A stretch of 16,401 nt of DNA from a virus. Its lineage: Duplodnaviria > Heunggongvirae > Uroviricota > Caudoviricetes. The notes beneath the pieces were generated by a model. It was not told the origin of the DNA. It worked only from the letters and a program-made list of their open reading frames with translations, and searched no databases. Below are positions 1 through 15,348 of the stretch, piece by piece. The stretch's first letter is position 1. Every line of letters begins with the position of its first letter. Location: the IMG/VR virus record IMGVR_UViG_3300029450_000074. The stretch is one strand, 5' to 3'. The position numbers and the translations under genes were made by a program.

Positions 1-594
1 TTTCACCGCACCCGGAGTGGTTTCACCGCCCGTGGTGGTGCTGCCCATGACGTGATCCGGTGCATCCTCACGGATTTTCTGCAGCCAGCCTTTGTTCACA
101 TCCTGCAGCAGCGGGTTTTCACTACGGTTGGAGGTTTTCGCACGCTTCACGCCGTTAAAGCCGATCATGATGCGGTCCAGTGCCTGACGTTTCACGATGG
201 CGTCACGGATACGCACCTGGAAATCCTGAAACTTCGCCCACAGATCCAGCTTCGCGTAGGTCAGCACCGTGTCAAAGTTGGTCTGCTCGCATTTGTATTC
301 CACATCGACCATCAGCGTCGGATCGACAGGTTCACGCTCTTTCGCGGTGGTGTCAGTGGTTCCGGCAATGGTGCTGCCAACACCCAGCCCCAGCAGCTGA
401 CCGGACTGCTCAGTCACTGGCGTGACGTTAATCAGCGTCAGGAAAGCGGCGGACTGCTGGATCTGGTCTTCCAGCGTCTGCTGCACAGACGGCTCTACAG
501 TGAACTTGCTGGACAGTTCTTCAACTGCCACACCGTTCAGACGTGCCAGTTGCTGCAGGTAAGCGTTAAAAGCAAAGCGGGTATTCTTCTTCAT
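1..594 (-). CDS. N: Major capsid protein, P2 gpN family (partial; gene 3' end lies beyond window start)
   Basis: Minus-strand ATG at 592-594 with GGAG about 9 nt upstream; translation MKKNTRFAFNAYLQQLARLNGVAVEELSSKFTVEPSVQQ... stays open to position 1. Position directly downstream of the scaffold gene matches P2 head-gene order. Family assigned from memory of gpN, not a search. Confidence 0.8.
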   Translation of the reverse strand, partial: MKKNTRFAFNAYLQQLARLNGVAVEELSSKFTVEPSVQQTLEDQIQQSAAFLTLINVTPVTEQSGQLLGLGVGSTIAGTTDTTAKEREPVDPTLMVDVEYKCEQTNFDTVLTYAKLDLWAKFQDFQVRIRDAIVKRQALDRIMIGFNGVKRAKTSNRSENPLLQDVNKGWLQKIREDAPDHVMGSTTTGGETTPGAVK

Positions 595-609
595 CAGGTT
601 TGTGCTCCA

Positions 610-1443
610 TCAGCAATTGGTCAGAGTATCAGCGGGGGCGTTACCGCCTGTTGCACGCTGGCGGTAGTCCTGTCGGCTGTCTTCATGACTCAGCTTATTC
701 ACCAGTTCGTTAAAGGCGGTCTGCTGTGCCTGCAGGGCAGTCTCCAGCTCAGACAGACGTTCTTCCTGCTCAGACAGGGATTTTTCGGTGCGTGCGCTCA
801 GGTTCTGCTGCTCAGTGGCGACCAGCTCCACGGCCTTATGCACATCAGAGAACCGGGCGTCATCGGACTGCTCTTTTTTGGTAAACAGCGCCGTGACGCG
901 GGCAAACAGGGACGGTTTGTCGTCCTGGACTTCTTCCAGTTCGATCACCGTTTCCTCTGCGGCGGTAAAGAGATTGGCGGGATTCTGCTTGCGGTTTGCC
1001 AGCGGGTTATGGGCTGCACTGGCGCTGAATGTCAGCATTTCCGTACCCAGACTGGCAGGATCATCAGTGGCAGCCAGGCCAACCAGGTAGGCTTTGCCCG
1101 TATCAGCGAACTTCGGGCTGACTTCCATAGAGGTGAATAATTTCTGGCCTTTTTTCACCAGTTCCACCAAGGACTCCGTTGGCTCAACGTCGGCATACAG
1201 TGCCATCTTGCCTGCCAGCGGACCTTCCGTGATTTCTTCAGCAAACAGCGCCGTCACCTTGCCGTAGCGGTTAAAGGTGCTGTCTGGAAGATAAGACTTG
1301 ATGTGCTCAAGGTTAATCAGCGCGGTGTACACCGCCGGATTGTAGCTGGCTGCCATCTGTTCCAGCCATTCACGCTGGATTTCGCGTCCGTCGGTAGTGG
1401 CACCTTCCACCCCGATGCGAAAACGCTTTGCTTTCACTGTCAT
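610..1443 (-). CDS. O: Capsid scaffolding protein, P2 gpO family
   Basis: 277-aa ORF MTVKAKRFRIGVEGATTDGREIQREWLEQMAASYNP...; GGAG about 10 nt upstream of the ATG at 1443; stop at 610-612 sits just before the N start. Size and N-terminus fit gpO. Confidence 0.85.
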   Translation of the reverse strand: MTVKAKRFRIGVEGATTDGREIQREWLEQMAASYNPAVYTALINLEHIKSYLPDSTFNRYGKVTALFAEEITEGPLAGKMALYADVEPTESLVELVKKGQKLFTSMEVSPKFADTGKAYLVGLAATDDPASLGTEMLTFSASAAHNPLANRKQNPANLFTAAEETVIELEEVQDDKPSLFARVTALFTKKEQSDDARFSDVHKAVELVATEQQNLSARTEKSLSEQEERLSELETALQAQQTAFNELVNKLSHEDSRQDYRQRATGGNAPADTLTNC

Positions 1444-1585
1444 GAGCCGTGCTCCGTTAGAAAAAACTTACTGGAGCCTTATGGTTGCGGTGATGGGGGC
1501 AGTGAAACAATGCGCGGTATTTGTACCGACAACCACACAAACCGCAGGCGGGGAAAGCCTTCATTCAAGGCTGTAGGTTTGTGCC
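1444..1585. promoter_or_regulatory. Divergent O/P intergenic region with a TGT-N12-ACA dyad (1521-1538), candidate late-activator (Ogr/B-type) site
   Basis: The 142-bp gap between divergent head operons is where P2 late promoters lie. Exact TGT accgacaaccac ACA at 1521-1538; spacing to the O start fits a centre near -55 for a leftward promoter. No -10/-35 mapped. Confidence 0.3.
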
Positions 1586-3352
1586 ATGAACACCACACTG
1601 ACACCCGCAGATCTCGATCCCCGTCGGCAGGCCATGCTGCTGTACTTTCAGGGATACCGCGTAGCCCGCATTGCTGAAATGCTGGGCGAGAAAGTTGCAA
1701 CCGTTCACAGCTGGAAAAAACGCGACAAGTGGGGTGACTATGGGCCGCTGGATCAGATGCAGCTCACCACCGCCGCACGCTACTGCCAGCTCATTATGAA
1801 GGAGCACAAAGAAGGGAAAGATTTCAAAGAGATTGACCTGCTGGCGCGCCAGTCTGAGCGCCACGCGCGGATCGGCAAGTTTAACAATGGCGGCAACGAA
1901 TCCGACTTAAACCCTAACGTCGCCAACCGCAACAAAGGCCCACGCCGTCAGCCGGAAAAGAATGTTTTCACCGATGAGCAGATTGAGAAGCTGGAAGAAA
2001 TCTTCCATTCCTCCATGTTCAACTACCAGCGCCACTGGTGGGAAGCCGGAAAAACCAACCGCATCCGCAACCTGCTGAAGTCACGCCAGATCGGCGCGAC
2101 CTTCTATTTTGCCCGTGAAGCCCTGATTGACGCCCTGCTTACCGGACGCAACCAGATTTTCCTTTCTGCCAGTAAGGCTCAGGCCCACGTCTTTAAACAA
2201 TACATCATCGACTTCGCCAAAGAAGTCGAGGTGGAGCTAAAAGGCGATCCGATGGTGCTTCCTAATGGGGCCACGCTTTACTTCCTCGGCACCAATGCCC
2301 GCACGGCCCAGAGTTATCACGGCAACCTGTATCTGGATGAATATTTCTGGATACCGAAATTCCAGGAGCTGCGCAAAGTGGCTTCCGGGATGGCTATTCA
2401 CAAGAAATGGCGACAAACCTATTTTTCCACGCCATCCAGCCTGACCCACAGTGCTTATCCGTTCTGGTCCGGTGCGCTGTTCAACCGTGGACGCAACAAA
2501 GCTGACAAGGTGGACATCGACCTGTCCCACAGCAATCTGGCCCCCGGCCTGCTGTGCGCAGACGGGCAATACCGCCAGATAGTCACCGTGGAAGATGCGG
2601 TGCGCGGCGGCTGCAACCTGTTCGACCTTGACCAGTTGCGCATGGAGTACAGCCCGGACGAATACCAGAACCTGCTGATGTGCGAGTTTGTGGACGATCT
2701 CGCGTCCGTGTTTCCGCTCAGCGAGCTGCAGGCGTGCATGGTGGACAGCTGGGAAGTCTGGACCGACTTTCATGCACTGGCCCTTCGCCCGTTTGGCTGG
2801 CGCGAAGTATGGATCGGTTATGACCCGGCAAAAGGTACGCAGAACGGCGACAGTGCCGGATGCGTGGTGGTGGCACCGCCAGCCGTGCCGGGCGGTAAGT
2901 TTCGCATTCTTGAGCGTCACCAGTGGCGCGGGATGGACTTCCGCGCCCAGGCTGACGCCATCAAAAAACTGACCGAACAGTACAACGTGACCTATATCGG
3001 CATCGACTCAACTGGGGTCGGCCACGGGGTTTACGAGAACGTGAAAGCGTTCTTTCCTGCCGTCCGGGAGTTTGTCTACAACCCCAATGTTAAAAACGCC
3101 CTGGTACTCAAGGCCTACGACATTATCAGCCACCGCCGTCTGGAGTTTGACGCCGGACACACCGACATAGCGCAGTCATTCATGGCAATCCGTCGCGCCA
3201 CCACCGCCAGCGGCAACCGCCCGACCTATGAAGCCAGCCGCAGCGAAGAAGCCAGTCACGCCGATCTGGCCTGGGCAACAATGCACGCACTGTTTAACGA
3301 ACCGCTGCAGGGCGAGTCCGCCAATACCAGCAATATTGTGGAGATTTTTTGA
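1586..3352 (+). CDS. P: Terminase ATPase (large) subunit, P2 gpP family
   Basis: 588-aa ORF starting at ATG 1586, diverging from O and immediately followed by the portal gene with a TGATG stop/start overlap; length fits gpP (about 590 aa). Confidence 0.85.
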   Translation: MNTTLTPADLDPRRQAMLLYFQGYRVARIAEMLGEKVATVHSWKKRDKWGDYGPLDQMQLTTAARYCQLIMKEHKEGKDFKEIDLLARQSERHARIGKFNNGGNESDLNPNVANRNKGPRRQPEKNVFTDEQIEKLEEIFHSSMFNYQRHWWEAGKTNRIRNLLKSRQIGATFYFAREALIDALLTGRNQIFLSASKAQAHVFKQYIIDFAKEVEVELKGDPMVLPNGATLYFLGTNARTAQSYHGNLYLDEYFWIPKFQELRKVASGMAIHKKWRQTYFSTPSSLTHSAYPFWSGALFNRGRNKADKVDIDLSHSNLAPGLLCADGQYRQIVTVEDAVRGGCNLFDLDQLRMEYSPDEYQNLLMCEFVDDLASVFPLSELQACMVDSWEVWTDFHALALRPFGWREVWIGYDPAKGTQNGDSAGCVVVAPPAVPGGKFRILERHQWRGMDFRAQADAIKKLTEQYNVTYIGIDSTGVGHGVYENVKAFFPAVREFVYNPNVKNALVLKAYDIISHRRLEFDAGHTDIAQSFMAIRRATTASGNRPTYEASRSEEASHADLAWATMHALFNEPLQGESANTSNIVEIF

Positions 3353-4386
3353 TGGGAAAGAGTAAGAAGAACCGCGCTTCGGCGACGAAACAGATCCAGC
3401 TTAAAAGTCAAACTACAGCCGAAGCATTCAGCTTCGGCGATCCCGTTCCTGTTCTGGACCGCCGAGAACTGCTGGACTATGTGGAATGCGTACAGACAGA
3501 TCGCTGGTATGAGCCGCCAGTAAGCTTTGACGGACTGGCGCGCACCTTCCGCGCTGCCGTGCATCACAGTTCACCAATTGCGGTGAAATGCAACATACTG
3601 ACCAGTACCTACATCCCTCACCCGCTGCTCAGCCAGCAGGCTTTTTCACGTTTTGTGCAGGACTATCTGGTATTTGGTAACGCCTATCTGGAGAAACGCA
3701 CGAACCGCTTCGGTGAAGTTATCGCCCTTGAGCCTGCTCTGGCAAAATATACCCGACGCGGGTTAGACCTGGATACCTACTGGTTTGTGCAATACGGTAT
3801 GACAACCCAGCCGTATCAGTTCACGAAAGGCAGCATTTTTCATCTGATGGAACCGGATATTAATCAGGAGATCTACGGCCTGCCCGGCTATCTTTCTGCC
3901 ATCCCATCCGCTTTGCTCAACGAGTCCGCCACGCTGTTCCGCCGGAAGTATTACATTAACGGTAGTCATGCAGGCTTCATCATGTACATGACCGATGCCG
4001 CGCAGAACCAGGAGGATGTGAACAACCTCCGCAATGCGATGAAAAGCGCCAAAGGACCGGGTAACTTCCGCAACCTGTTTATGTACTCGCCTAACGGCAA
4101 AAAGGATGGGCTTCAGATCATTCCTCTGTCAGAAGTCGCGGCGAAGGATGAGTTTCTAAACATCAAGAACGTGAGCCGGGATGACATGATGGCGGCGCAT
4201 CGTGTGCCACCGCAAATGATGGGGATTATGCCTAATAATGTTGGGGGATTTGGGGATGTGGAGAAGGCCAGCCGCGTATTCGTTCGTAATGAACTTATTC
4301 CGCTTCAGAGACGCTTTGAGGAGCTTAATAAATGGCTGGATAAAAACGCGATAGGGTTCACAAATTACGAATTATCGCTAGATTAG
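3352..4386 (+). CDS. Q: Portal (capsid portal/vertex) protein, P2 gpQ family
   Basis: ATG at 3352 overlaps the P stop (TGATG); GGAG 8 nt upstream; 344 aa as expected for gpQ. The ORF track start at 3349 is a TTG. Confidence 0.85.
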   Translation: MGKSKKNRASATKQIQLKSQTTAEAFSFGDPVPVLDRRELLDYVECVQTDRWYEPPVSFDGLARTFRAAVHHSSPIAVKCNILTSTYIPHPLLSQQAFSRFVQDYLVFGNAYLEKRTNRFGEVIALEPALAKYTRRGLDLDTYWFVQYGMTTQPYQFTKGSIFHLMEPDINQEIYGLPGYLSAIPSALLNESATLFRRKYYINGSHAGFIMYMTDAAQNQEDVNNLRNAMKSAKGPGNFRNLFMYSPNGKKDGLQIIPLSEVAAKDEFLNIKNVSRDDMMAAHRVPPQMMGIMPNNVGGFGDVEKASRVFVRNELIPLQRRFEELNKWLDKNAIGFTNYELSLD

Positions 4387-4395
4387 CTTCCCAAC

Positions 4396-4427
4396 AGCCG
4401 CAGAATTGCGGCTTTTCTTTTTTTGTT
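4396..4427 (+). terminator. Rho-independent terminator after Q
   Basis: Perfect 7-bp stem AGCCGCA (4396-4402) / TGCGGCT (4407-4413) with a GAAT loop, followed by the T-run tttctttttttg. Confidence 0.6.
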
Positions 4428-4446
4428 ATCGTGATATGTTTGATAC

Positions 4447-5097
4447 ATGGACATCACACTGAATCTAAAAATGAAAAAGGATAAAGCATTAGAATTTTAC
4501 GAAAAACTTTATTTCTCAGAAATTGAGAATAAAGACAAGATACATACTCGCGCTCAAGCCGAATTCGGATTAGTTGTCATTACCGCAACTATACTCACTT
4601 ATCTCGCCAAAAACACATCTTATGAATCCCACCCAAGGCTAGCTTGCCTAGTATTTTTATGTACCGCAATTTCATTTGGCTTAGTTCTTGTATCATCAAT
4701 TCTGTTGAAACAAGTCATATGGGGAAATGAATTTAAGTATTGCCCTGCACCTAAAGCATTGCATGATTATCACATAGATCTGATTAGTTACGAAGTGAAA
4801 TATAAAAAATATTGCGATGACAATGGACTTACATACGATGAAAGTTATAACCCTGATAATAAACTTTGGGAGTTTATTCATCAAGAAATCAGAGAGTGTG
4901 CTAGCTGGAACAGTAATATCAATGAGGAACGTTCCAGTAAACTATTTGAGTCAACAAAGTATCTTGTCTGGTCATGGATTCCAATTATCGCAGCAGTAGT
5001 CATATTTCTTTTAGCTGATTTAGATGCAGCATCACCGCGGAAAAATAACGCCCCTAACTATTTGATAATACCTATTGAAAATGTCAGGAGAACTTAA
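4447..5097 (+). CDS. Hypothetical membrane protein (about 3 predicted TM helices), AT-rich accessory gene
   Basis: 216-aa ORF in visibly AT-rich DNA. Hydrophobic segments FGLVVITATILTYLA, LACLVFLCTAISFGLVLVSSILL and LVWSWIPIIAAVVIFLLADL flank a soluble Cys-containing segment of about 85 aa. No clear SD at the 4447 ATG. No family recognised. Confidence 0.5.
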   Translation: MDITLNLKMKKDKALEFYEKLYFSEIENKDKIHTRAQAEFGLVVITATILTYLAKNTSYESHPRLACLVFLCTAISFGLVLVSSILLKQVIWGNEFKYCPAPKALHDYHIDLISYEVKYKKYCDDNGLTYDESYNPDNKLWEFIHQEIRECASWNSNINEERSSKLFESTKYLVWSWIPIIAAVVIFLLADLDAASPRKNNAPNYLIIPIENVRRT

Positions 5098-5234
5098 TGA
5101 CCAAACCGTTACCGCCACCACCTCCTCGGCCTACTCCACCCGCAAGAAGGATCGTTATTGAAGATGATTCAAAAGCAAGGCAACTACGAAGAGACAGAAA
5201 GGACGATAAAAATGACCGAACACAAAAATCCTAA
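5097..5234 (+). CDS. Polyproline micro-ORF 1 (45 aa): MTKPLPPPPPRPTPPARRIVIEDDSKARQLRRDRKDDKNDRTQKS
   Basis: ATG overlaps the stop of the membrane-protein gene (TAATG at 5095-5099); AGGAG at 5086-5090, 6 nt upstream. Hand-translated; below the ORF-track length cutoff. Confidence 0.35.
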   Translation: MTKPLPPPPPRPTPPARRIVIEDDSKARQLRRDRKDDKNDRTQKS

Positions 5235-5349
5235 AAAAAATGAAGCACCACCACCACCACCACCACCTAAACCGCCAATCACTCGGTTAGTTAGAGAAAG
5301 CTATGGCAATGATCCAAAAAATAGGAAAAATAAAGATGAGCAAAAATGA
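5212..5349 (+). CDS. Polyproline micro-ORF 2 (45 aa): MTEHKNPKKNEAPPPPPPPKPPITRLVRESYGNDPKNRKNKDEQK
   Basis: Internal ATG of track ORF 5158-5349; starts 23 nt before the micro-ORF 1 stop in the +1 frame; AAGGA-like SD about 8 nt upstream; reads through an A8 run at 5233-5240. Confidence 0.35.
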   Translation: MTEHKNPKKNEAPPPPPPPKPPITRLVRESYGNDPKNRKNKDEQK

Positions 5350-5443
5350 GAAATCTAATTTACCGCCGCCGCCACCACCCAGCAAGCCGCCTACCCGCCA
5401 AGTATTCGATCACGATGATACGAAGAAGAAATCAAAAAGATAA
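5336..5443 (+). CDS. Polyproline micro-ORF 3 (35 aa): MSKNEKSNLPPPPPPSKPPTRQVFDHDDTKKKSKR
   Basis: ATG at 5336 overlaps the end of micro-ORF 2 by 14 nt, again shifted +1; AGGA about 10 nt upstream. Hand-translated. Confidence 0.3.
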   Translation: MSKNEKSNLPPPPPPSKPPTRQVFDHDDTKKKSKR

Positions 5444-5476
5444 GTAGGTTAAGAAAGTCATACAGGTTATATATTC

Positions 5477-5520
5477 GAAGCGCCTAGTAACATTCTGCTA
5501 GGCGCTTCTTATTGTATTCA
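5477..5520 (+). terminator. Strong stem-loop, probable terminator closing the membrane-protein/micro-ORF unit
   Basis: Perfect 11-bp stem GAAGCGCCTAG (5477-5487) / CTAGGCGCTTC (5498-5508), 10-nt loop, then a T-rich tract ttattgtattcatttt. Confidence 0.5.
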
Positions 5521-5595
5521 TTTTCCCTGACAGCCTCAAGCTAATAACACTCGAAGATCGTCAAAAATTTATTGTACATAACCCTATTGCGCGCG

Positions 5596-5616
5596 CTCGT
5601 ATCCCCGCCACGCCTG
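5596..5616 (-). other. cos-like cohesive-end motif (P2/186-type), candidate packaging site
   Basis: Minus strand reads GGCGTGGCGGGGATACGAGCGCGCGC. The first 13 nt match the start of the 186/P2 19-nt cohesive end as I recall it (GGCG[T/A]GGCGGGGAAAGCA...), followed by a GCGCGC block as in P2. Position between Q and the replication side, and orientation pointing toward Q, fit the P2 left end. Match is from memory. Confidence 0.35.
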
Positions 5617-5637
5617 CCCGCTTTATGTAGTGGTTTT

Positions 5638-5737
5638 CATGCACCTGCATGTTCTACGTAAAAGCCCGCTAGTTCTGGCGAGCCTTAGCAAAAACGATCC
5701 TTAAACGATCATGCGATTTCATGCAGCATAGTCATGC
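5638..5737. repeat. Cluster of four TCATGC(A) direct repeats next to the cos-like motif
   Basis: TCATGC at 5638-5643, 5709-5714, 5719-5724 and 5732-5737, the last three spaced 10 and 13 nt apart. Confidence 0.3.
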
Positions 5738-5936
5738 ACTGTCTAAGAGAAGTGAAAGTCCGTATCTGAATGACCACTTGAAAAACGAAACATACAGACT
5801 TACAAAGATGAAGCTCTACTGTGAGCGAGGAACATACATAGTTGCTCTGTAATAGCCAAATTTTAAGCAGGAAATCTCTTTTTTATGACAAAACTATAAA
5901 GAAAAACAGACCGTTTCATCGCTCGATGAAAATATA

Positions 5937-7550
5937 CTACAATACTTTTCTCTCGATGGTATTTTTAATGGTCAACATATCTTTAGGAATACTTTTTTTC
6001 CCCTCTATACGTATGGTAAACACAAAAAGAATAACGGCTGATCTCACAATTTTCATGAGTTGTAAGAGCTGTTTCTCAAACTTTTCTTTCTCAATAAACC
6101 TCACCTCATCAAAAAATCCATAAGAATTATATAAATCAACTAACATGTCTTTCTCATGAATAACTAACAGTTTATGTTCTAAATCATTCCTCCATTCTTT
6201 AAAAAAAGCAAGCTCACCATTTTTATCATTCAAATCCATAGCAATACTAAACAAACCCAGCAATCCTTTATTATTTATTTTATTTATTTTAAGCTTTCTT
6301 TTTTCATCACTAATCCGCCAGAAGTTATGAAAGTATATATGTCCTCTATCTGGTTTTAAATCAAATAATTGACACAGAGCAACTGCTATTTTATCCAAGA
6401 TACCAAAGCAAGCTCTAAATGCAACCCTTAACTTCTCAACATTTTCATACAATATTTCTCCATTATACAATTCAGAATAACATACCTCCGAATCCTCATC
6501 AAAAAACTCACTATCAACCTTATATTCAAAAAACATTTTTCGTGCTAAGGAATACTCAGCTTTAAGTCTATTTAACACCATTTCCATTGGCACTATAAAA
6601 TCACCAAATACACCTTCCTCGGTGGTCGCAATAGTTATATTATCTTTAGATGACGCATAACAATTGCAATATAGCGAATGATCAGACAACATTAGATTAT
6701 TATCTATACAAAACCTCTGGTAGTTTGATAAAGTATCATACTCCTCCTGCGTGAGCCTTTCATCTGTACTTATATCCTCTATGCCATATACACATGATTC
6801 ACTCAATATACTTTCGTTGTGCTTTATTTTTCTTTGAAGAGTAACCTTCCATGAAGGAAAACATTTCCCTGACTTTATTGCACACTCATAACCTCGAATA
6901 ACTTCTTTAATCATTTTATATGTATATGTTGTAGATAATTCATTAAGCAATTCTAATGCCTCAGATCTGTTTACCCACGCCTGAGGAATTGAGTTATCAA
7001 TAGATATTGCTTGTTCATAATAATCCATTGATTCAGATATACGATATTGTTTTTTTAATACATTAGCTAGATTAACTATTAAATCAGGGGGCACCCATCC
7101 ATCTTCTTGTGAAAGTTTAAACGCTTTCCAGTAATTATTTTTTACATCATTCAGCTTAATGAAACTATCAATATCTGCATTGTCATTAGGATCAAAATCA
7201 AGAACTGCGCTCATTCCATTTGCCAAGTTATAGTAATATAAGGATTCTTTCATTATAGTCAGAAATTCATTTTTATTGTTTATAAAGATATTTAAGCCTT
7301 CCTCCGCTATATTTTTTACATTACTAAAACTTCCGATATCAATAAGATTTCCGGCCAAATTAGATAATATAATTATTCTATTTTCTTTGATTGTATTTAT
7401 CTCATCGATACCGTTAAGAATATCCTTTACATTTTTATAGGCAGAATCAAATGAACCTGCATTAATAAGATCATCTACGAACCCCATTTTTGAAACAACA
7501 TAGTTGATATCCNNNNNNNNNNNNNNNNNNNNNNAAGCTAATAATACCAA
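5937..7550 (-). CDS. Hypothetical 537-aa protein, AT-rich cargo gene; candidate anti-phage/abortive-infection protein with a C-terminal HEPN-like R-x4-H motif
   Basis: Long minus-strand ORF in strongly AT-rich DNA between cos and the tum/A module. C-terminal WRNDLEHKLLVIH contains R-N-D-L-E-H (codons verified at 6174-6191). No Walker A seen. N-terminus uncertain: track start is a TTG at 7550, an N-run (7513-7534) lies in the first codons, and the first ATG after it is at 7487. Confidence 0.6.
   Translation of the reverse strand: MVLLAXXXXXXXXDINYVVSKMGFVDDLINAGSFDSAYKNVKDILNGIDEINTIKENRIIILSNLAGNLIDIGSFSNVKNIAEEGLNIFINNKNEFLTIMKESLYYYNLANGMSAVLDFDPNDNADIDSFIKLNDVKNNYWKAFKLSQEDGWVPPDLIVNLANVLKKQYRISESMDYYEQAISIDNSIPQAWVNRSEALELLNELSTTYTYKMIKEVIRGYECAIKSGKCFPSWKVTLQRKIKHNESILSESCVYGIEDISTDERLTQEEYDTLSNYQRFCIDNNLMLSDHSLYCNCYASSKDNITIATTEEGVFGDFIVPMEMVLNRLKAEYSLARKMFFEYKVDSEFFDEDSEVCYSELYNGEILYENVEKLRVAFRACFGILDKIAVALCQLFDLKPDRGHIYFHNFWRISDEKRKLKINKINNKGLLGLFSIAMDLNDKNGELAFFKEWRNDLEHKLLVIHEKDMLVDLYNSYGFFDEVRFIEKEKFEKQLLQLMKIVRSAVILFVFTIRIEGKKSIPKDMLTIKNTIERKVL
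7513..7534. other. N-run (22 nt) inside the 5' end of the 537-aa cargo ORF
   Basis: Literal n characters in the sequence. Confidence 1.
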
Positions 7551-7603
7551 TCATTATATGGATGAGATCAATATAGAACATGCCATCTCCGGCAAAAATC
7601 GTA

Positions 7604-7774
7604 CTACATCAGACCAGTGCCCTTCAAATAATATAAATTGAACTTAGATACTTCTGCTTCAACCAGTGTGTTAAATCCATCGCTTGAACTCAGAACAAAA
7701 AGCGGACGATCACTTATCAAAATGGCCGTCCACCTAACGCCTCGTTTCACTCGTTGCCCAAAATAGTCCCCCAT
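7604..7774 (-). CDS. Small hypothetical ORF (56 aa) downstream of the DinI-like gene
   Basis: ATG at 7772-7774 preceded by AAGAGGA about 10 nt upstream; could be a distal gene of the tum operon. No recognisable motif. Confidence 0.25.
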   Translation of the reverse strand: MGDYFGQRVKRGVRWTAILISDRPLFVLSSSDGFNTLVEAEVSKFNLYYLKGTGLM

Positions 7775-7804
7775 CAGAATGAATCCTCTTGGGGGCAACG
7801 TTTC

Positions 7805-8038
7805 TTAATGCAGCCAGCTGTCGTCTTCCCACACCTTCTGCATAATTTTCATCACTTGCTTCCTTTCTTCGTCCAGTTGCAGTCCGGTCAGTTCCACACC
7901 GTTAGAGCTACCTTTGCGAATGCGAATTACCGTTTTGGGATACAGGGGGCGCAGATTGCGGTAAAGCTCGGATTCAAGGGCGTCCAGGGTAGACTGGCTA
8001 ATCTTCTGCTCTTTATCGATCATTATTTCAATGCGCAT
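7805..8038 (-). CDS. DinI-like protein (Tum-type antirepressor C-terminal domain / DinI family)
   Basis: 77-aa product MRIEIMIDKEQKISQSTLDALESELYRNLRPLYPKTVIRIRKGSSNGVELTGLQLDEERKQVMKIMQKVWEDDSWLH resembles E. coli DinI as I recall it (MRIEV...DALAGEL...ETWESADDW). ATG at 8036-8038 with GAGGTG 6 nt upstream; a TGA at 8114-8116 blocks the longer track ORF. Confidence 0.6.
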   Translation of the reverse strand: MRIEIMIDKEQKISQSTLDALESELYRNLRPLYPKTVIRIRKGSSNGVELTGLQLDEERKQVMKIMQKVWEDDSWLH

Positions 8039-8048
8039 AAAAGTCACC

Positions 8049-8240
8049 TCAGCTGATGACATCCATTGAGCGGTTGTATTCGTGGGTTCTGATTTTTGCC
8101 ATGAGTTCATCTGTCAGTTCAGNNNNNNNNNNCTGCAGGGCCAGCCCCTTCTCTTCATCACTACACTCACTAGCCGCTACAAGCTTAAGAAAAAAATCAA
8201 TGCGCTGGAGCTTCAAAGACTCCAAAAAATAGTCCTGCAT
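8049..8240 (-). CDS. Small ORF preceding the DinI-like gene (possible N-terminal part of a Tum-like protein); interrupted by N-run 8123-8132
   Basis: ATG at 8238-8240 with a strong AGGAGG SD; sits about 45 nt downstream of a LexA box. Combined length with the DinI-like ORF is about 145 aa; 186 Tum is about 146 aa (from memory). Confidence 0.4.
   Translation of the reverse strand: MQDYFLESLKLQRIDFFLKLVAASECSDEEKGLALQXXXXELTDELMAKIRTHEYNRSMDVIS
8123..8132. other. N-run (10 nt) inside the tum-like small ORF
   Basis: Literal n characters in the sequence. Confidence 1.
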
Positions 8241-8281
8241 CTTTCCTCCTATGACACCACAAGCAATACTGTACGCATAAC

Positions 8282-8301
8282 CACTGTTTATATTTACAGT
8301 A
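8282..8301 (-). promoter_or_regulatory. LexA (SOS) operator upstream of the tum-like operon
   Basis: cACTGTtTATATtTACAGTA with CTGT-N8-ACAG at 8284-8299, a close match to the LexA box consensus TACTGTATATATATACAGTA. Flanked by AT-rich promoter-like sequence; -10/-35 not resolved. Confidence 0.6.
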
Positions 8302-8393
8302 TATAATAATCTTACTGATGTAAAACGTTTTTTTACGTTCATCAGCCTGATATACCTGGTATTATTAAGAGCACGAATTGTTAACCCGCGTAA

Positions 8394-10771
8394 TTAATAC
8401 AGGTTCCGCCACTTATCATCTTCCTGCAAACGCTGGTTCCGATAGAAAATACGCAGGCCTGCTCCTGACGGAATGCTGCCGCCGCGAAGGAGTAAATCGA
8501 CCTCTTTCTCGCTGCCATCAAATCCTCTGGACTTCAGTTCATAGACGAGCTGCTGTCGCTGATGATCTGTAATTCGCTGTTTGTAGTCTCTACGCCGTTT
8601 CGGTTTCACCAGGCGTAACCTTGCAGCCAGTTCCCGGCGCTCTTTTTTGTTCATATTGTGCAGGTAATCGTGCAATTCCTTGTCATCCATGCGGGTGATA
8701 TCCGTTCTGGTATCCCCATCAGCTGATTTGTCTTTCCCTTGTTGGTACAAATTTTCAGCAAGGGGACAGTTATTGCCACGAGTCCAAGGGGCGCAAGCGC
8801 CCTGATCGGCTGCCGCCTCCTGAACGTCAACGGCCTTACGAACCATTTTCCACTTCACTGCATGAGTGCAGATCTTGCCCTCTGCAATGGGTGACCAGAT
8901 GCCATAAATACGAATACCGTGATCGCCATAGGCGGTTGGCTCTTCGTTGATTTCATAAGCGGTTCTGATGAGGTGATATTTGCGGGGAACCAGTACGCCG
9001 CCCTGCTTCATGATGTAGGTGGCAAAACAACCAGCATCAGCAGCAGCCAGAATGGCATCAAGACGCGGGTTATCCAGTACCGGCGCACCTGCTTTTTTGT
9101 CACCCTGTTGCCTTGCCGCCTGACCAGCCAGCAAGCGAAGTTCACGGTAAGCCTGACGTCCCGGAATACCAAAGAAGCGGAATTGCTGAACACGATGCAG
9201 AGACGCCCAGGCATTAACGTATTCAGCGTTATCACGCAGGGATTTACCCGTTTCCTTGCTGATCTCGCCAGCCAGACCACGCCCGTCAATGTTCTTACTG
9301 ATGTATTTCGCGATGTAGCTTGTCGGCGTTCCTTTGCGCGGGTTTATCAGCTCAGATTTAAAGCGTGGACCAGTGTTATTACCCAGTTCCTCGCGGTCTT
9401 CACGGATGGCAAACTTACGCAACAATGCAGTAATGGCGCGGCGGTCTTTTTTGCGCATGAAACACAACAGGTGCCAGTGAACTGTACCGTCATGATGCGG
9501 CTCAGCCACCCGCACGCCATACCAGCGCAACTCGGCTTTGTGCATCGCCTTACGAAATGCAGCAAACATGCCGACCAGATAATCGCTGCTTTGTCTTACC
9601 GTCGCATTTGTCCAGGTTGGGTTTGGTCTGCCGTTATTGAGCGTGGAATGGAAACGTGACGGACAGGTAATGGTGTAGAAAACGGCGCAGTCACCGCGCA
9701 TTTCCGCGATAAGCTCCAGACCTTTAACACAGGCCATCATCTCATTGCGGCGGTGCGCCGGGTTGCTGCTGCTGGCGTTTACCACGTCTTCCATNNNNNN
9801 NNNNNNNNNNNNNCCTCTTCGTTCACCAGTTCATGAGAACGGAAAAACTCCAGTGACTTGCGGCGCTGCTCACGTTTATGCATCACGGCTTCATAGCTGA
9901 CATAGGGAGATGCTTTTTTGCTGACCAGGCAGACAGCACGCAACTGCTCTTCCCGCCATTCGCAACGCATCTTCCATAATTTCCGGTACCACCAGTCAGC
10001 GCACAACATACGCGCCAGCGAACCCGGAATGAGTTCATAGGGCACGGGTTTACGGCGGTTTCTTTTCCGGCGGAGTTGCTCAAACGCAGGCGGGATGACA
10101 TCCAGACGCAGGGTTTCCGCTGCCACCTTTTCCCATGTCTTGCGGATTTCTTCTGGCTTAACGTCATCGGTGACATACAAATCGCCACAAGCTGCATCAA
10201 GGCACATGCTCATATGCGCAGCTACCAGGGTGGACAGGCGTTTCACCTGATCCTGACTCATTTCAGGCAGGATCAGCAGGCCGTCCAGCCCTACATGGCT
10301 TGCCATAAAGCGAAAAGAAGTGGATAGCTGACAGTCGCGTACATGCTCCAGCCGTTCCAGACATGGCTTAATCGTCTCACGCAAATAGCGGGAATAAGCC
10401 TTTGGCCTGCCCAGGCTGCTGAAGTATTCAATACGTTGCATCAGTGGCTTGCTGATATGGGAAGGCTGGGCATTGACGTCCGCCAGAATGACCATATCTG
10501 GATTAAAACGCTGCTGCTCATGCGCCAGCTTTGCCCGACTAATGAGCTTATCCTGCTCCATTTCGCGCTGGACAGGATCACGGGATTCATTAAAGAAATA
10601 ACGCTCCCAGACCTGATCACTCAGTGCCTCGCGGCGCAGCTGTTCCTGCTCGTTATCGGCAGCGTACAGAGCGATCAGGTTTGAAAGCGCAGAAACTGAA
10701 GATTGCTCTTCTGTCTCTACGTAAGGATTGATTGCTTTTTTCTCAGCATTCCAGGAATAGCTGTAGTTCAT
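8394..10771 (-). CDS. A: Replication initiation protein, P2 gpA family (HUH rolling-circle endonuclease); reading frame interrupted at N-run 9795-9813
   Basis: Two adjacent minus-strand track ORFs (9779-10822 and 8394-9794). The downstream part carries HUH motif [10 protein letters not shown] and tandem-tyrosine motif YIAKYISK. Likely start is ATG 10771 (GGAGA SD) rather than the TTG at 10822. The two parts are in different frames across the 19-nt N-run. Confidence 0.75.
9795..9813. other. N-run (19 nt) inside replication gene A
   Basis: Literal n characters in the sequence. Confidence 1.
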
Positions 10772-10849
10772 TACGCAATCTCCAGTTCGAGCTGTGAAGG
10801 CTGCAAACCATTCGACAGCCAATCAGAAACTGAAGGTGGGCGAACAGCT

Positions 10850-11608
10850 TCAATTGCACCTTTTAAAATTGCGCAACGGTTTTTCAGAATGACAGCTTTC
10901 AGCTCCTTTTCCGTCANNNNNNNNNNNNNNNNNNNNNTCAGCCTCCTGAATAGCCCGCGTCAGCTCAGGATATTTGCTATTAAATTTGGGGACATTGCAG
11001 GCAAGATTTGTACTGTCGGCAGTCGCCAGTGGGTAATTTCCCAACACACGACCGTCAAGCATGCGCAAACCATGAACAGCTGTTTTGAAATTGTGTCGGC
11101 AATAAATTGCTTCAAAAGCGTCCTGCATACGACGATGCCAGTGCGCAGTTCTGATAGCCGCATATTCACCAGACGATCCAAAGCAGACACGAGGCCATTC
11201 ACGACATAGCTCGATAAGCCGATCGATTGACTCGTGCAGATGCCAGACGGGAGTTGCCTTCCCGTAGAACATTTTCGGAACTTCGTTTATCAGGGCATCA
11301 TTGTCACGTTCACCTCCGTCCACAACATCAGGAATGACAAAAAAAGCGACCTTAGGATGGTGGTAATAGTTCAGGAGCCATTTATAAAAATCACTCCAGT
11401 TAATTTTTAGCCCACGCACCCATGCAGAAAATGCGCCGTTATCAATGCCGACGACCTGAGCGTGCTGAATGGACGCCGCAATCTGATCTGGTCGTACATA
11501 GGAGACGAAAGCGCCAGCTCCGCTCACCGCAATACGATGAACGTCGCCAGCACTTCCCCAGACAGGCGTCCCATGGAAATGATGAATTCCGTGGTGCATT
11601 TCTTTCAC
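10850..11608 (-). CDS. Hypothetical 252-aa protein translationally coupled to the Dam methyltransferase; family unassigned
   Basis: Start (GTG 11606-11608 or ATG 11597-11599) overlaps or abuts the Dam stop (TGA 11605-11607). Motifs GIDNGAFSAW and VIPDVVDGG have a weak, unverified resemblance to TGT/DpdA-type signatures; no zinc-binding Cys cluster. N-run 10917-10937 lies near the C-terminus. Confidence 0.45.
   Translation of the reverse strand: MKEMHHGIHHFHGTPVWGSAGDVHRIAVSGAGAFVSYVRPDQIAASIQHAQVVGIDNGAFSAWVRGLKINWSDFYKWLLNYYHHPKVAFFVIPDVVDGGERDNDALINEVPKMFYGKATPVWHLHESIDRLIELCREWPRVCFGSSGEYAAIRTAHWHRRMQDAFEAIYCRHNFKTAVHGLRMLDGRVLGNYPLATADSTNLACNVPKFNSKYPELTRAIQEAXXXXXXXXDGKGAESCHSEKPLRNFKRCN
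10917..10937. other. N-run (21 nt) inside the Dam-coupled 252-aa ORF
   Basis: Literal n characters in the sequence. Confidence 1.
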
Positions 11609-14260: not shown

Positions 14261-14385
14261 GATGCAACATTCCTCGTTTAATGATGATTAATCAGGACGA
14301 ATACGGATCGTTTGTATTTTGTGAACACCATAAACATACGATCGCACAGTGAAATCGTCAAGATAAAAGTTCACTTGGAGTGACC
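14261..14385. promoter_or_regulatory. Lysogeny/lysis switch region; candidate leftward lytic promoter
   Basis: On the minus strand: -35 TTGACG (plus 14356-14361), 17-nt spacer, -10 TATGTT (plus 14333-14338), reading toward the Apl-like gene. A rightward repressor promoter was not confidently located. Confidence 0.35.
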
Positions 14386-14955
14386 ATGAATTTGGAGAAA
14401 GGCGGACGAGGCGCTATAGAGCGCATGGTAGAAGCTTATGGATTCAAAACTCGACAGGCGTTGTGCGATCATTTAGGAATCTCTAAAAGTACACTCGCCA
14501 CACGCTACATGCGTGACTCATTCCCAGCAGAATGGGTAATCCAGTGCGCCCTTGAAACGGGCACCTCGCTTAATTGGCTCACAACCGGACATGGTTCAAA
14601 GCAAACTTCAGGTAATACAAATACTATGGAAGTTGCTAAATATGTATTATCTGATGGTGCCTTGCGTGAAGACGGTTTTTATATTTTTGATAAGGGATTT
14701 CTACCCTCTACGTTTAAAAAACCTTTTGTCATCACAGATAACAATTCTGAATTTATTTGTGATAAAGAATTTGATGATATACGTGACGGTAAATGGGTAA
14801 TAAGTATTGATGGCGAAATAACAATCCGCGACATTACTCGTTTACCCGGTGGAAGAATCTTCGTTGAAGGTGGAAACAGAGCCTTCGAGTGCAAGATAGA
14901 AGATGTTGAAATAATTGGGAAAATTATAAGTTTAACAATTAAGTACGTTAGGTAA
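14386..14955 (+). CDS. cI: CI-type immunity repressor (186 CI-like, N-terminal HTH)
   Basis: 189 aa from ATG 14386 (GGAG 5 nt upstream; track start 14380 is a GTG). HTH TRQALCDHLGISKSTLATRYMRD. Size fits 186 CI (about 192 aa), not P2 C (99 aa). Confidence 0.7.
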   Translation: MNLEKGGRGAIERMVEAYGFKTRQALCDHLGISKSTLATRYMRDSFPAEWVIQCALETGTSLNWLTTGHGSKQTSGNTNTMEVAKYVLSDGALREDGFYIFDKGFLPSTFKKPFVITDNNSEFICDKEFDDIRDGKWVISIDGEITIRDITRLPGGRIFVEGGNRAFECKIEDVEIIGKIISLTIKYVR

Positions 14956-14970
14956 TACCGGGAGGAAACT

Positions 14971-15162
14971 ATGCTTGGTAAGGTATTTTTTGTGGTTTTA
15001 TCATGCTCTTTGTTATTAAACCCACTAACTACCTATGCTAAAAATTATCCTTGTTCTGGGAAAAAGGGAGGTGTCTCTCACTGTACCTCCGATGGAAAGT
15101 TCGTTTGCAATGATGGAACTATTAGTAAATCAAAAAAAATCTGTACTAAAAACTCGCGATAA
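14971..15162 (+). CDS. Small secreted cysteine-rich peptide (signal peptide plus about 40-aa mature peptide with 4 Cys)
   Basis: Strong SD GGGAGG before ATG 14971; N-terminal [23 protein letters not shown] looks like a Sec signal peptide; mature part [40 protein letters not shown] is basic with 4 cysteines. AT-rich insert between cI and int. Confidence 0.5.
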
Positions 15163-15348
15163 ATTTTGCTTTTATATCTGCGCCTAATATAACAATGAGC
15201 CGCAGGCTAACCGCAAAAGTCACATACTCATATAGCAAAAAATAGCCAACTTCATTATGGCTTCAGTGAGATGTATGGTCGCAGGATTTCATACATTGAC
15301 ACTGGTTATATATACAGCAAAAATGCTCTCTATTGGAGGGCATTTTTT

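Follow-up and report, generated by a model that had tools for sequence, protein, structure and literature searches.

Is the AT-rich DNA on both sides of the cohesive-end packaging site (cos) of a P2-like phage a single island or two separate cargoes, and what might these cargoes do? The question is raised by IMG/VR record IMGVR_UViG_3300029450_000074 (Caudoviricetes), a 16,401-nucleotide stretch of DNA, hereafter the window, that is part of a P2-like (Peduoviridae) prophage in the orientation reversed relative to the P2 map. We consider it highly likely that the interval between the portal gene Q (gpQ) and the replication gene A (gpA) of this prophage, positions 4423-7794, represents a known hotspot that a conserved block around cos splits into two independent bays, each with its own transcription unit and, probably, with a role in defense. 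The Q-side bay encodes a membrane protein and three polyproline micro-proteins (hereafter, the cassette), and the A-side bay a single TPR-HEPN gene.

The base composition delineates the two blocks. The P and Q genes have a GC content of 0.546, compared to 0.378 in the Q-side bay (4423-5580, 1158 bp, plus strand) and 0.324 in the A-side bay (5741-7794, 2054 bp, minus strand); the value is 0.512 in the cos block between them (5581-5740) and 0.506 from the DinI-like gene to gpA. Over 1.2 and 2.1 kb, sampling noise could not come close to producing differences of this size. The first-pass annotation of this DNA, made from the sequence alone, had described AT-rich accessory DNA on both sides of a cos-like motif, and the computed composition, which is anything but uniform, bears this out, including the drop immediately after the Q terminator, which begins past the stem and the T-run. 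Two of the limits it gave have to be moved: the recovery of GC content is real but occurs at approximately 7650-7800, with homology to relatives resuming at 7795, rather than near 7600, and the GC-richer patch, which does hold cos, spans 5581-5740 rather than 5560-5640. Within the Q-side block, the segment 5097-5443 is less AT-rich (GC 0.44), solely because of its CCN proline codons.

The flanks of the interval are those of a P2-like backbone. The left anchor is Q (3349-4386, plus strand; Pfam Phage_portal, 3.1e-18; 93% identity to Escherichia P2-like portals), followed by tQ, a rho-independent terminator recovered by the terminator scan (4396-4422, plus strand, with the stem at 4396-4413 and a T-run), at the place where P2 and 186 have their annotated tQ and tW, respectively. 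On the other side, the first conserved gene encodes a DinI-like protein (7805-8038, minus strand; Pfam DinI, 1.3e-22; the RefSeq homologs are 234 nt long), and the right anchor is gpA (8394-10822, minus strand; Pfam Phage_GPA in both halves).

Between these anchors, the packaging site is readily recognizable. The core of the cohesive ends, GGCGTGGCGGGGATACGAG (5596-5614, minus strand), matches, together with its flanks, the annotated P2 cosL and 186 cos, the cohesive ends aligned to it being GGCGAGGCGGGGAAAGCAC in P2 and GGCGTGGCGGGGAAAGCAT in 186; by manual count, the 19-mer shares 14 of the 19 bases with P2 cosL and 15 of the 19 with 186 cos. The flanks common to the window and the joined P2 ends are GCGCGC and AAGCGGGC / GGTGCAT.AAAACC, so that the motif called cos-like in the first-pass annotation is indeed a counterpart of cos. 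By homology, terminase would cleave at 5596-5614 and produce 19-nt 5' cohesive ends; from the geometry of such a cut, it follows that the two bays would lie at opposite ends of the linear virion DNA, as that annotation had anticipated. The distance from the portal stop codon to cos is 186 bp in P2, 195 bp in 186, and 1210 bp here.

To delimit the conserved block around cos, we aligned on the cos core 59 species-level P2-like loci, all with the exact core, one genome per species, picked by similarity to the window portal. Alignment columns between about 5588 and 5739 reach a conservation of 0.8-0.99, against a background of 0.34-0.39 just outside, and the block is 88-95% identical to relatives with different cargo. 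Around the 19-mer, conservation extends for about 8 bp toward Q and about 125 bp toward A; the functional cos block is, therefore, asymmetric, and the short conserved stretch on the Q side suggests that terminase recognition is almost wholly on the right-end side. The A-side part of the block (5615-5740) contains CATGCA/TGCATG repeats at 5638, 5646, 5720, and 5733 and a conserved stem-loop at 5660-5683, which plausibly function as terminase-binding and terminator elements.

The DNA flanking this block is of a different nature. Compared to loci with other cargo or none (L036, L011, L002, and L006 in our set), the window is homologous only in Q, in 5581-5740, and from 7795 onward. From the end of Q to 5581-5590, no homology to L036, L011, L002, L006, L089, or L090 was detected, and on the other side, homology to L001, L002, L006, and L036 ends at 5739-5740 and restarts at 7795. 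Comparison with these relatives sets the limits of the two cargo bays at 4423-5580 and 5741-7794. AT-rich DNA lies beside cos in many relatives, which could prompt the suspicion that low GC content reflects a local mutational or structural constraint near the packaging site instead of foreign cargo; this is extremely improbable, given that the flanks show no relationship from one relative to another, code for distinct proteins, and are missing altogether on the Q side in P2 and 186 and on both sides in L036.

The two blocks also assort independently, in agreement with the claim of the first-pass annotation that two separate cargo blocks flank cos. Among 5426 complete Escherichia coli genomes, the Q-side sequence is found at 99.7% identity in just 6 and the A-side sequence at 98.5% identity in 11, and the overlap between the 11 genomes with the HEPN gene and the 6 with the cassette is zero. 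The HEPN gene has six Q-side partners in all, namely, an AAA ATPase (L089), a 120-aa protein (L090), DUF262 with IS2 (L099), AIPR (L100), a PIN protein (L101), and the membrane cassette of the window, and the cassette has at least three A-side partners (other genes in L001 and L102, and HEPN in the window). Furthermore, the window itself is a mosaic, with positions 1-5739 being 98.6% identical to L001 and positions 5590-9145 being 98.5% identical to L089; these matches overlap only in the cos block, which places the crossover there. The view that the whole AT-rich interval is one island from a single acquisition, with cos inside it by chance, accounts for the adjacency and the similar AT-richness of the blocks but is very improbable in the face of these observations: the blocks occur apart and with several partners each, the intervening cos block is a conserved core common to cargo-free relatives, and the window itself appears to combine an L001-like and an L089-like parent, with the junction inside that block. 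Judging from these sequence comparisons, the gpA-gpQ hotspot is split by the cos block into two independently exchanging bays. Probably, homologous recombination between P2-like elements resident in the same cell, and occasionally P4-like ones, exchanges the bays; Q/tQ, the cos block, and DinI/gpA would serve as conserved anchors, the cos block being a crossover point midway through the hotspot.

How much of this is new? For Rousset et al. 2022 (PMC9122126), the P2 hotspot comprises every gene from gpQ to gpA and lies next to cos, with 1650 arrangements counted in 18,150 loci; the same definition appears in Egorov et al. 2024 (bioRxiv 10.1101/2024.10.15.618418) and in a 2026 survey in Nucleic Acids Research (PMC13586616), and the two sides of cos are not separated in the available portions of the three sources. 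The interval 4423-7794 is this established P2-like gpA-gpQ defense hotspot: it is located between the portal and gpA, adjoins a P2-type cos, and varies in content among similar phages. Hence, the hotspot itself is not new, and the suggestion of the first-pass annotation that the Q-side block is not the hotspot known from P2 has to be dropped, as the published hotspot includes everything from gpA to gpQ; that suggestion traces to the P2 reference genome, which by itself shows cargo on the A side. Because the hotspot is established biology, the finding as originally worded adds little. New relative to the available portions of the published accounts are three things: an explicit division into two bays with a crossover at cos, the prevalence of Q-side cargo within this clade, and the uncharacterized cassette.

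The predominance of Q-side cargo emerges from the 59 loci. More than 700 bp separates the Q stop codon from cos in 48 of them (81%; median 1685 bp), a proportion that, in a sample picked by portal similarity, may not hold for all P2-like phages, and nine have the short gap typical of P2. Both anchors are present in 51 loci: both bays are occupied in 22 of these, the Q-side bay alone in 19, the A-side bay alone in 6, and neither bay in 4. Relatives more often have Q-side cargo than lack it. The manner of selection of this sample qualifies the two-bay description, as does the fact that recombination at the cos block is deduced from breakpoints. Known defense genes often make up the Q-side cargo: in a PADLOC and Pfam scan of 82 open reading frames (ORFs), each 90 aa or longer, taken from Q-side bays in 44 loci, the PADLOC matches included PD-T4-9 (CmdTAC), bSEFIR, AbiLi, AriA, ATPase-Toprim, PtuA, Old, and PD-T7-4, and the Pfam matches TIR_2, AAA_15/21, KAP_NTPase, and SEFIR. 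Nearly all these ORFs (79 of the 82; L006-L068) are directed from cos to Q, that is, convergent with Q at tQ, and the window cassette has the rare opposite orientation. Separately, copies of IS2 were observed inside hotspot bays of E. coli prophages, on the Q side in L099 (1665-2893) and on the A side in L102 (5599-6827).

In the window, each bay would constitute a self-contained transcription unit reading toward cos. The simpler of the two is the A-side unit, which would consist of a single gene of the TPR-HEPN (LA2681) type. This sole A-side cargo gene runs from approximately 7515 to 5937 on the minus strand and encodes a protein of about 525 aa; its start codon is concealed by a run of N at 7513-7534, and an unmasked homolog (WP_000354145) is 525 aa long and starts with MDINYVV. 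Positions 9-204 of the 204 in the Pfam HEPN_LA2681 profile (PF18733) are matched at 1.9e-38, with 132.3 bits against a cut-off of 27, and there are weak TPR matches in the N-terminal half. The Rx4H motif, RNDLEH at residues 442-447 of the unmasked homolog, is identical in the window and conforms to the Rx4-6H pattern; the minus-strand TATAAT at 7558-7553 could serve as a -10 element. From these features, we infer a stand-alone abortive infection protein in which the HEPN domain would act as the RNase effector and the TPR part as the sensor.

The stand-alone nature of this protein bears on published gene arrangements. Table S5 of Rousset et al., in the portions of PMC9122126 available, lists the arrangements 'HEPN_LA2681 + AAA_15/AAA_21' and 'HEPN_LA2681 + KAP_NTPase', and the source cited there for the HEPN superfamily is Anantharaman et al. 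2013 (PMC3710099); a test of HEPN_LA2681 was not found in these portions. In L089 (2426-6375, with cos at 4457-4475), the HEPN and AAA genes are located on opposite sides of cos. In light of this arrangement and of the six Q-side partners, HEPN_LA2681 is most likely a stand-alone single-gene module, and 'HEPN_LA2681 + AAA_15/AAA_21' may be two unrelated single-gene modules rather than one system. By extension, if cos acts as a crossover point between independent bays that is shared with P4 satellites, some of the published multi-gene 'systems' of this hotspot may be pairs of unrelated neighbors on opposite sides of cos.

The Q-side unit appears to be more elaborate, comprising a candidate promoter, a 208-aa membrane protein, three translationally linked micro-proteins, and a terminator, all on the plus strand. 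The core of the TGATATGTT element at 4432-4440, TG.TATGTT, is invariant in 7 of the 7 cassette loci, with diverged flanks, and is probably the extended -10 promoter of the cassette; this placement puts the start of the membrane protein gene at the ATG at 4471. The gene ends at 5097; its ORF is open from 4447, and M9 is the conserved start in an alignment of 16 sequences. An AlphaFold2 (AF2) model of the protein (pLDDT 82.5) shows four long helices, and there are three hydrophobic segments. The ATG of pepA (5097-5234, 45 aa) overlaps the stop codon of the membrane protein gene (TAATG), followed by pepB (5212-5349, 45 aa) and pepC (5336-5443, 35 aa), and the cassette closes with a terminator identified by the terminator scan at 5477-5518 (a 13-bp stem at 5477-5508 and a T-rich tail). 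The three small ORFs overlap slightly, each in a different frame and each with its own Shine-Dalgarno sequence.

Several lines of evidence indicate that these polyproline ORFs are real genes. All 8 loci with a homolog of the membrane protein (53-100% identity) also contain three proline-rich ORFs, the frame relationships among which vary from locus to locus, up to an in-frame fusion of pepB and pepC in L092. Ratios of nonsynonymous to synonymous substitution rates (dN/dS) among the closer pairs, for which dS is near saturation, are 0.08-0.4 overall (0.09-0.4 for pepA, 0.17-0.36 for pepB, and 0.08-0.29 for pepC). It is because of this conservation in 8 loci, the changing frames, the low dN/dS, and the visible ribosome-binding sites that we consider the three ORFs to be genuine. 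In each peptide, a brief polar N-terminal stretch leads into 6-12 prolines and (K/T)PPxxR, after which come hydrophobic residues, two or three in number, and finally acidic and basic ones, as in RRIVIEDD and RQVFDHDDTKKK; the conserved residues after the prolines are RR(I/V)VIEDD and R.(A/V)FDHDD, and pepC has the conserved end ...PPxR.(A/V)FDHDD.KKK.

Runs of 6-12 prolines are strong EF-P-dependent ribosome stall sites. This established property, along with the tight coupling of the ORFs to the upstream gene through the TAATG overlap, would fit a scenario in which the polyproline ORFs are leader-type stalling elements, or simply CCN-rich DNA, that tune the expression of the membrane protein gene or the stability of its mRNA. 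We regard this as improbable: the ORFs lie downstream, not upstream, of the gene to be regulated, the residues after the prolines are conserved at the protein level, the ORFs are kept in L094 although the run of consecutive prolines is interrupted there, and the majority of distant relatives carry the motif within the membrane protein, where its docking is predicted with high confidence. Three more specific identities were also considered and rejected. The hexapeptide PRPTPP of pepA, which we take to resemble pyrrhocoricin, suggested a proline-rich antimicrobial peptide of the oncocin/pyrrhocoricin type, but it is not conserved in homologs (PPPTPP, PPPKPP, KPPVPP); a spanin pair (Rz/Rz1) is at odds with the lack of a hydrophobic N terminus, signal peptide, lipobox, or cysteine in pepA, pepB, and pepC; and programmed frameshifting that would join the three ORFs does not agree with frame relationships that differ by locus and with a start codon and Shine-Dalgarno sequence for each ORF.

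Scans of the membrane protein and the peptides against Pfam, NCBIfam, and PADLOC gave no usable result, and PHROGs yielded one family, phrog_36961 (function unknown), matched by the membrane protein at 4.8e-22. A literature search for a polyproline or SLATT-plus-proline system found no description of one, and the RefSeq accessions of the cassette proteins are absent from those supplementary tables of Rousset et al. (PMC9122126) that were available. The cassette is, then, a combination of a membrane protein and three polyproline micro-proteins that matches no described system.

The wider family of the membrane protein suggests what the micro-proteins might do. A word-indexed search recovered only 17 close clusters, and a full profile search recovered 957 representatives at E <= 1e-3. 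Among the best 149 of these 957, 79 are at least 240 aa long, and 58 of the 79 end in a proline-rich tail with the signature ...R-h-h-E/D, located after a variable helical linker. Thus, the proline-rich module usually belongs to the membrane protein and has been split off and triplicated in the subfamily of the window. In the AF2 model of one fused member, P0042 (based on an alignment of 58 sequences; pLDDT 85.9, pTM 0.73), the proline-run block 251-260 reaches a pLDDT of 96, and there are only two strands, one at 88-90 in the conserved GNxY that follows the second membrane helix and the other at 261-263, formed by the RRI downstream of the prolines. We read this model as predicted docking of the proline-rich module on the core of the membrane protein.

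If so, the membrane protein of the cassette could be a membrane-damaging effector, and the proline-rich module, provided here in trans, could bind its core and control it. Because of their 6-12 consecutive prolines, the peptides would require EF-P and active translation for their supply, so that, when phage infection lowers the translation capacity of the cell, these separate, short, hard-to-translate peptides would be depleted and the effector set free. This specific mechanism, a peptide-held membrane effector released upon loss of translation, is offered as a tentative proposal, and the broader notion that the membrane protein and the proline-rich module form a new, widespread defense or toxin-antitoxin-like system, with peptide gating via the GNxY strand, is still more doubtful although worth considering.

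More generally, each bay most likely shields the lysogen from attack by other phages. The defense role is suggested by the HEPN domain, the effector-like membrane protein, and the recognized defense genes in the bays of relatives; several observations on the cassette count against it. The membrane protein of the window has no match in PADLOC, Pfam, or NCBIfam; fold searches returned only generic helical bundles; and among 114 relatives, just about one fifth match effector models, all weakly (PycTM, 15, the best at 2.8e-6; RTasSLATT, 4; 2TM effector, 6). In addition, with three membrane helices, the fused tail would exit on the side opposite the predicted docking site, a conflict that would disappear if the amphipathic fourth (linker) helix also crossed the membrane. 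The 114 relatives show no match to any Pfam family, SLATT included, and no gene for a nucleotide signal (cyclase, SMODS) or a reverse transcriptase adjoins the cassette, the neighbors being the three micro-ORFs, Q, and cos.

These observations leave some room for another prophage membrane function of the Q-side cassette, such as superinfection exclusion at DNA entry, an accessory role in lysis timing, or lysogenic conversion of the envelope. A small membrane protein that lacks an enzymatic partner and matches no defense model would suit such a function, and a 35%-identical short form adjoins the baseplate/spike gene V, a site of mixed-function cargo (orf30-type), in another P2-like phage (L095, 3603-4343; L096, 1603-2401). 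That short form, too, is followed by proline-rich micro-ORFs, and its location implies that this type of cassette uses more than one phage hotspot. On balance, we deem a non-defense membrane function unlikely, if by no means negligible, because relatives of the protein do resemble, even if weakly, PycTM, SLATT, and 2TM suicide effectors and because the micro-proteins have no lipoprotein or signal sequence. Protection of the lysogen, accordingly, is the function of the cassette that we favor.

The cassette also has a history beyond P2-like phages. In two P4-like remnants that encode an integrase, Psu, and Pox_D5 (L091, 4050-6160; L093, 4049-6159), we detected a portal pseudogene followed by tQ, the cassette, and cos. 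This 2.2-kb block shows unbroken homology to window positions 3520-5740 at 73% identity and is located between the integrase/DUF8370 region and psu, beside cos, that is, in the P4 hotspot; the portal in it is 5'-truncated and disrupted, retaining Q residues 58-343. In a related arrangement in Pantoea stewartii (L086, 3057-6081), which may be a P2 remnant or a satellite, a Q remnant that retains residues 144-345 comes directly after tRNA-Met and precedes the cassette, the DUF1493/DUF8209 genes, cos, and an Ogr/Delta gene. The Q'-tQ-cassette-cos block must derive from a P2-like phage, cos forming one boundary of the transferred segment. The survey PMC13586616 reports no exchange of recognized defenses between P2 and P4, to which the unannotated cassette appears to be an exception.

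The closest complete relative of the window, a prophage of E. coli WS0115A, is 98.6% identical across window positions 1-5739. Upstream of Q are the scaffold gene O (610-1443, minus strand) and the terminase gene P (1586-3352, plus strand). Rather than cargo, the small ORF between DinI and gpA (8049-8342; phrog_698, function unknown, 6.8e-31) belongs to the conserved backbone; its annotation in relatives is that of a conserved hypothetical protein of 62 aa. Beyond gpA are a Dam methylase gene and a 186-type CII/CI lysogeny module. Runs of N at 7513-7534, 8123-8132, 9795-9813, and 10917-10937 are masks that do not reflect the true length; that at 9795-9813 makes gpA appear as two ORFs, and because its 19 N replace 14 nt of relatives, a frameshifted gpA in a defective prophage was ruled out. 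A further AT-rich patch, at 14550-15300 (GC 0.35-0.37), covers the 3' portion of the gene for the CI repressor (14380-14955) together with an ORF of 63 aa that has no Pfam match (14971-15162), and just after it comes a 376-aa ORF that runs off the end of the window.

Taken together, these findings have several implications. They call for caution with guilt by association, given that gpQ-to-gpA arrangements, such as HEPN_LA2681 with AAA_15/21, can bring together genes that share neither a transcript nor a common inheritance. The cassette, with its unusual architecture and a proline-rich module that is fused in cis in most relatives, is a small, readily cloned candidate for a new defense or toxin-antitoxin mechanism. 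The conjunction of a truncated portal, the cassette, and cos in P4-like remnants is direct sequence evidence of cargo transfer from helper to satellite. Finally, the distinction between the two bays is a useful refinement of the hotspot definition as given in the available portions of the published work.

Comparison with known systems puts these features in perspective. Like SLATT, PycTM, and the 2TM effectors of CBASS, the membrane protein of the cassette is a small helical membrane protein encoded in a defense locus, but no signal-producing enzyme accompanies it, and its third hydrophobic helix and the proline-rich module that partners it are not known from those families. By analogy with bacterial gasdermins and toxin-antitoxin pairs, as generally understood, a short C-terminal segment is predicted to fold onto the core in the fused form, its counterpart here being a separate small gene product, without any sequence or fold relationship between gasdermins and the membrane protein and without an associated protease in the cassette. 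The HEPN protein resembles the LA2681-like family (PF18733) in its full-length model match and Rx4H catalytic motif, but is a lone gene on the A side, whereas in the available part of Table S5 its counterparts are paired with AAA_15/21 or KAP_NTPase. The location of the cassette between int and psu in the P4-like remnants is that of the cos-adjacent P4 hotspot in the available portions of Rousset et al. 2022, with the difference that it comes with a 5'-truncated portal pseudogene, which points to capture from a P2-like phage. The locus as a whole shares with the P2 hotspot, as far as the latter is described in the available portions of PMC9122126, the portal Q, DinI/orf91-type, and gpA anchors, the proximity to cos, the AT-richness, the high variability between relatives, and the enrichment in defense genes. 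In P2 itself, all the cargo (old, tin) is on the A side, whereas both sides are filled in the window, and whereas the hotspot is a single locus in the published descriptions available, here it appears as two bays with the cos block as the internal crossover point.

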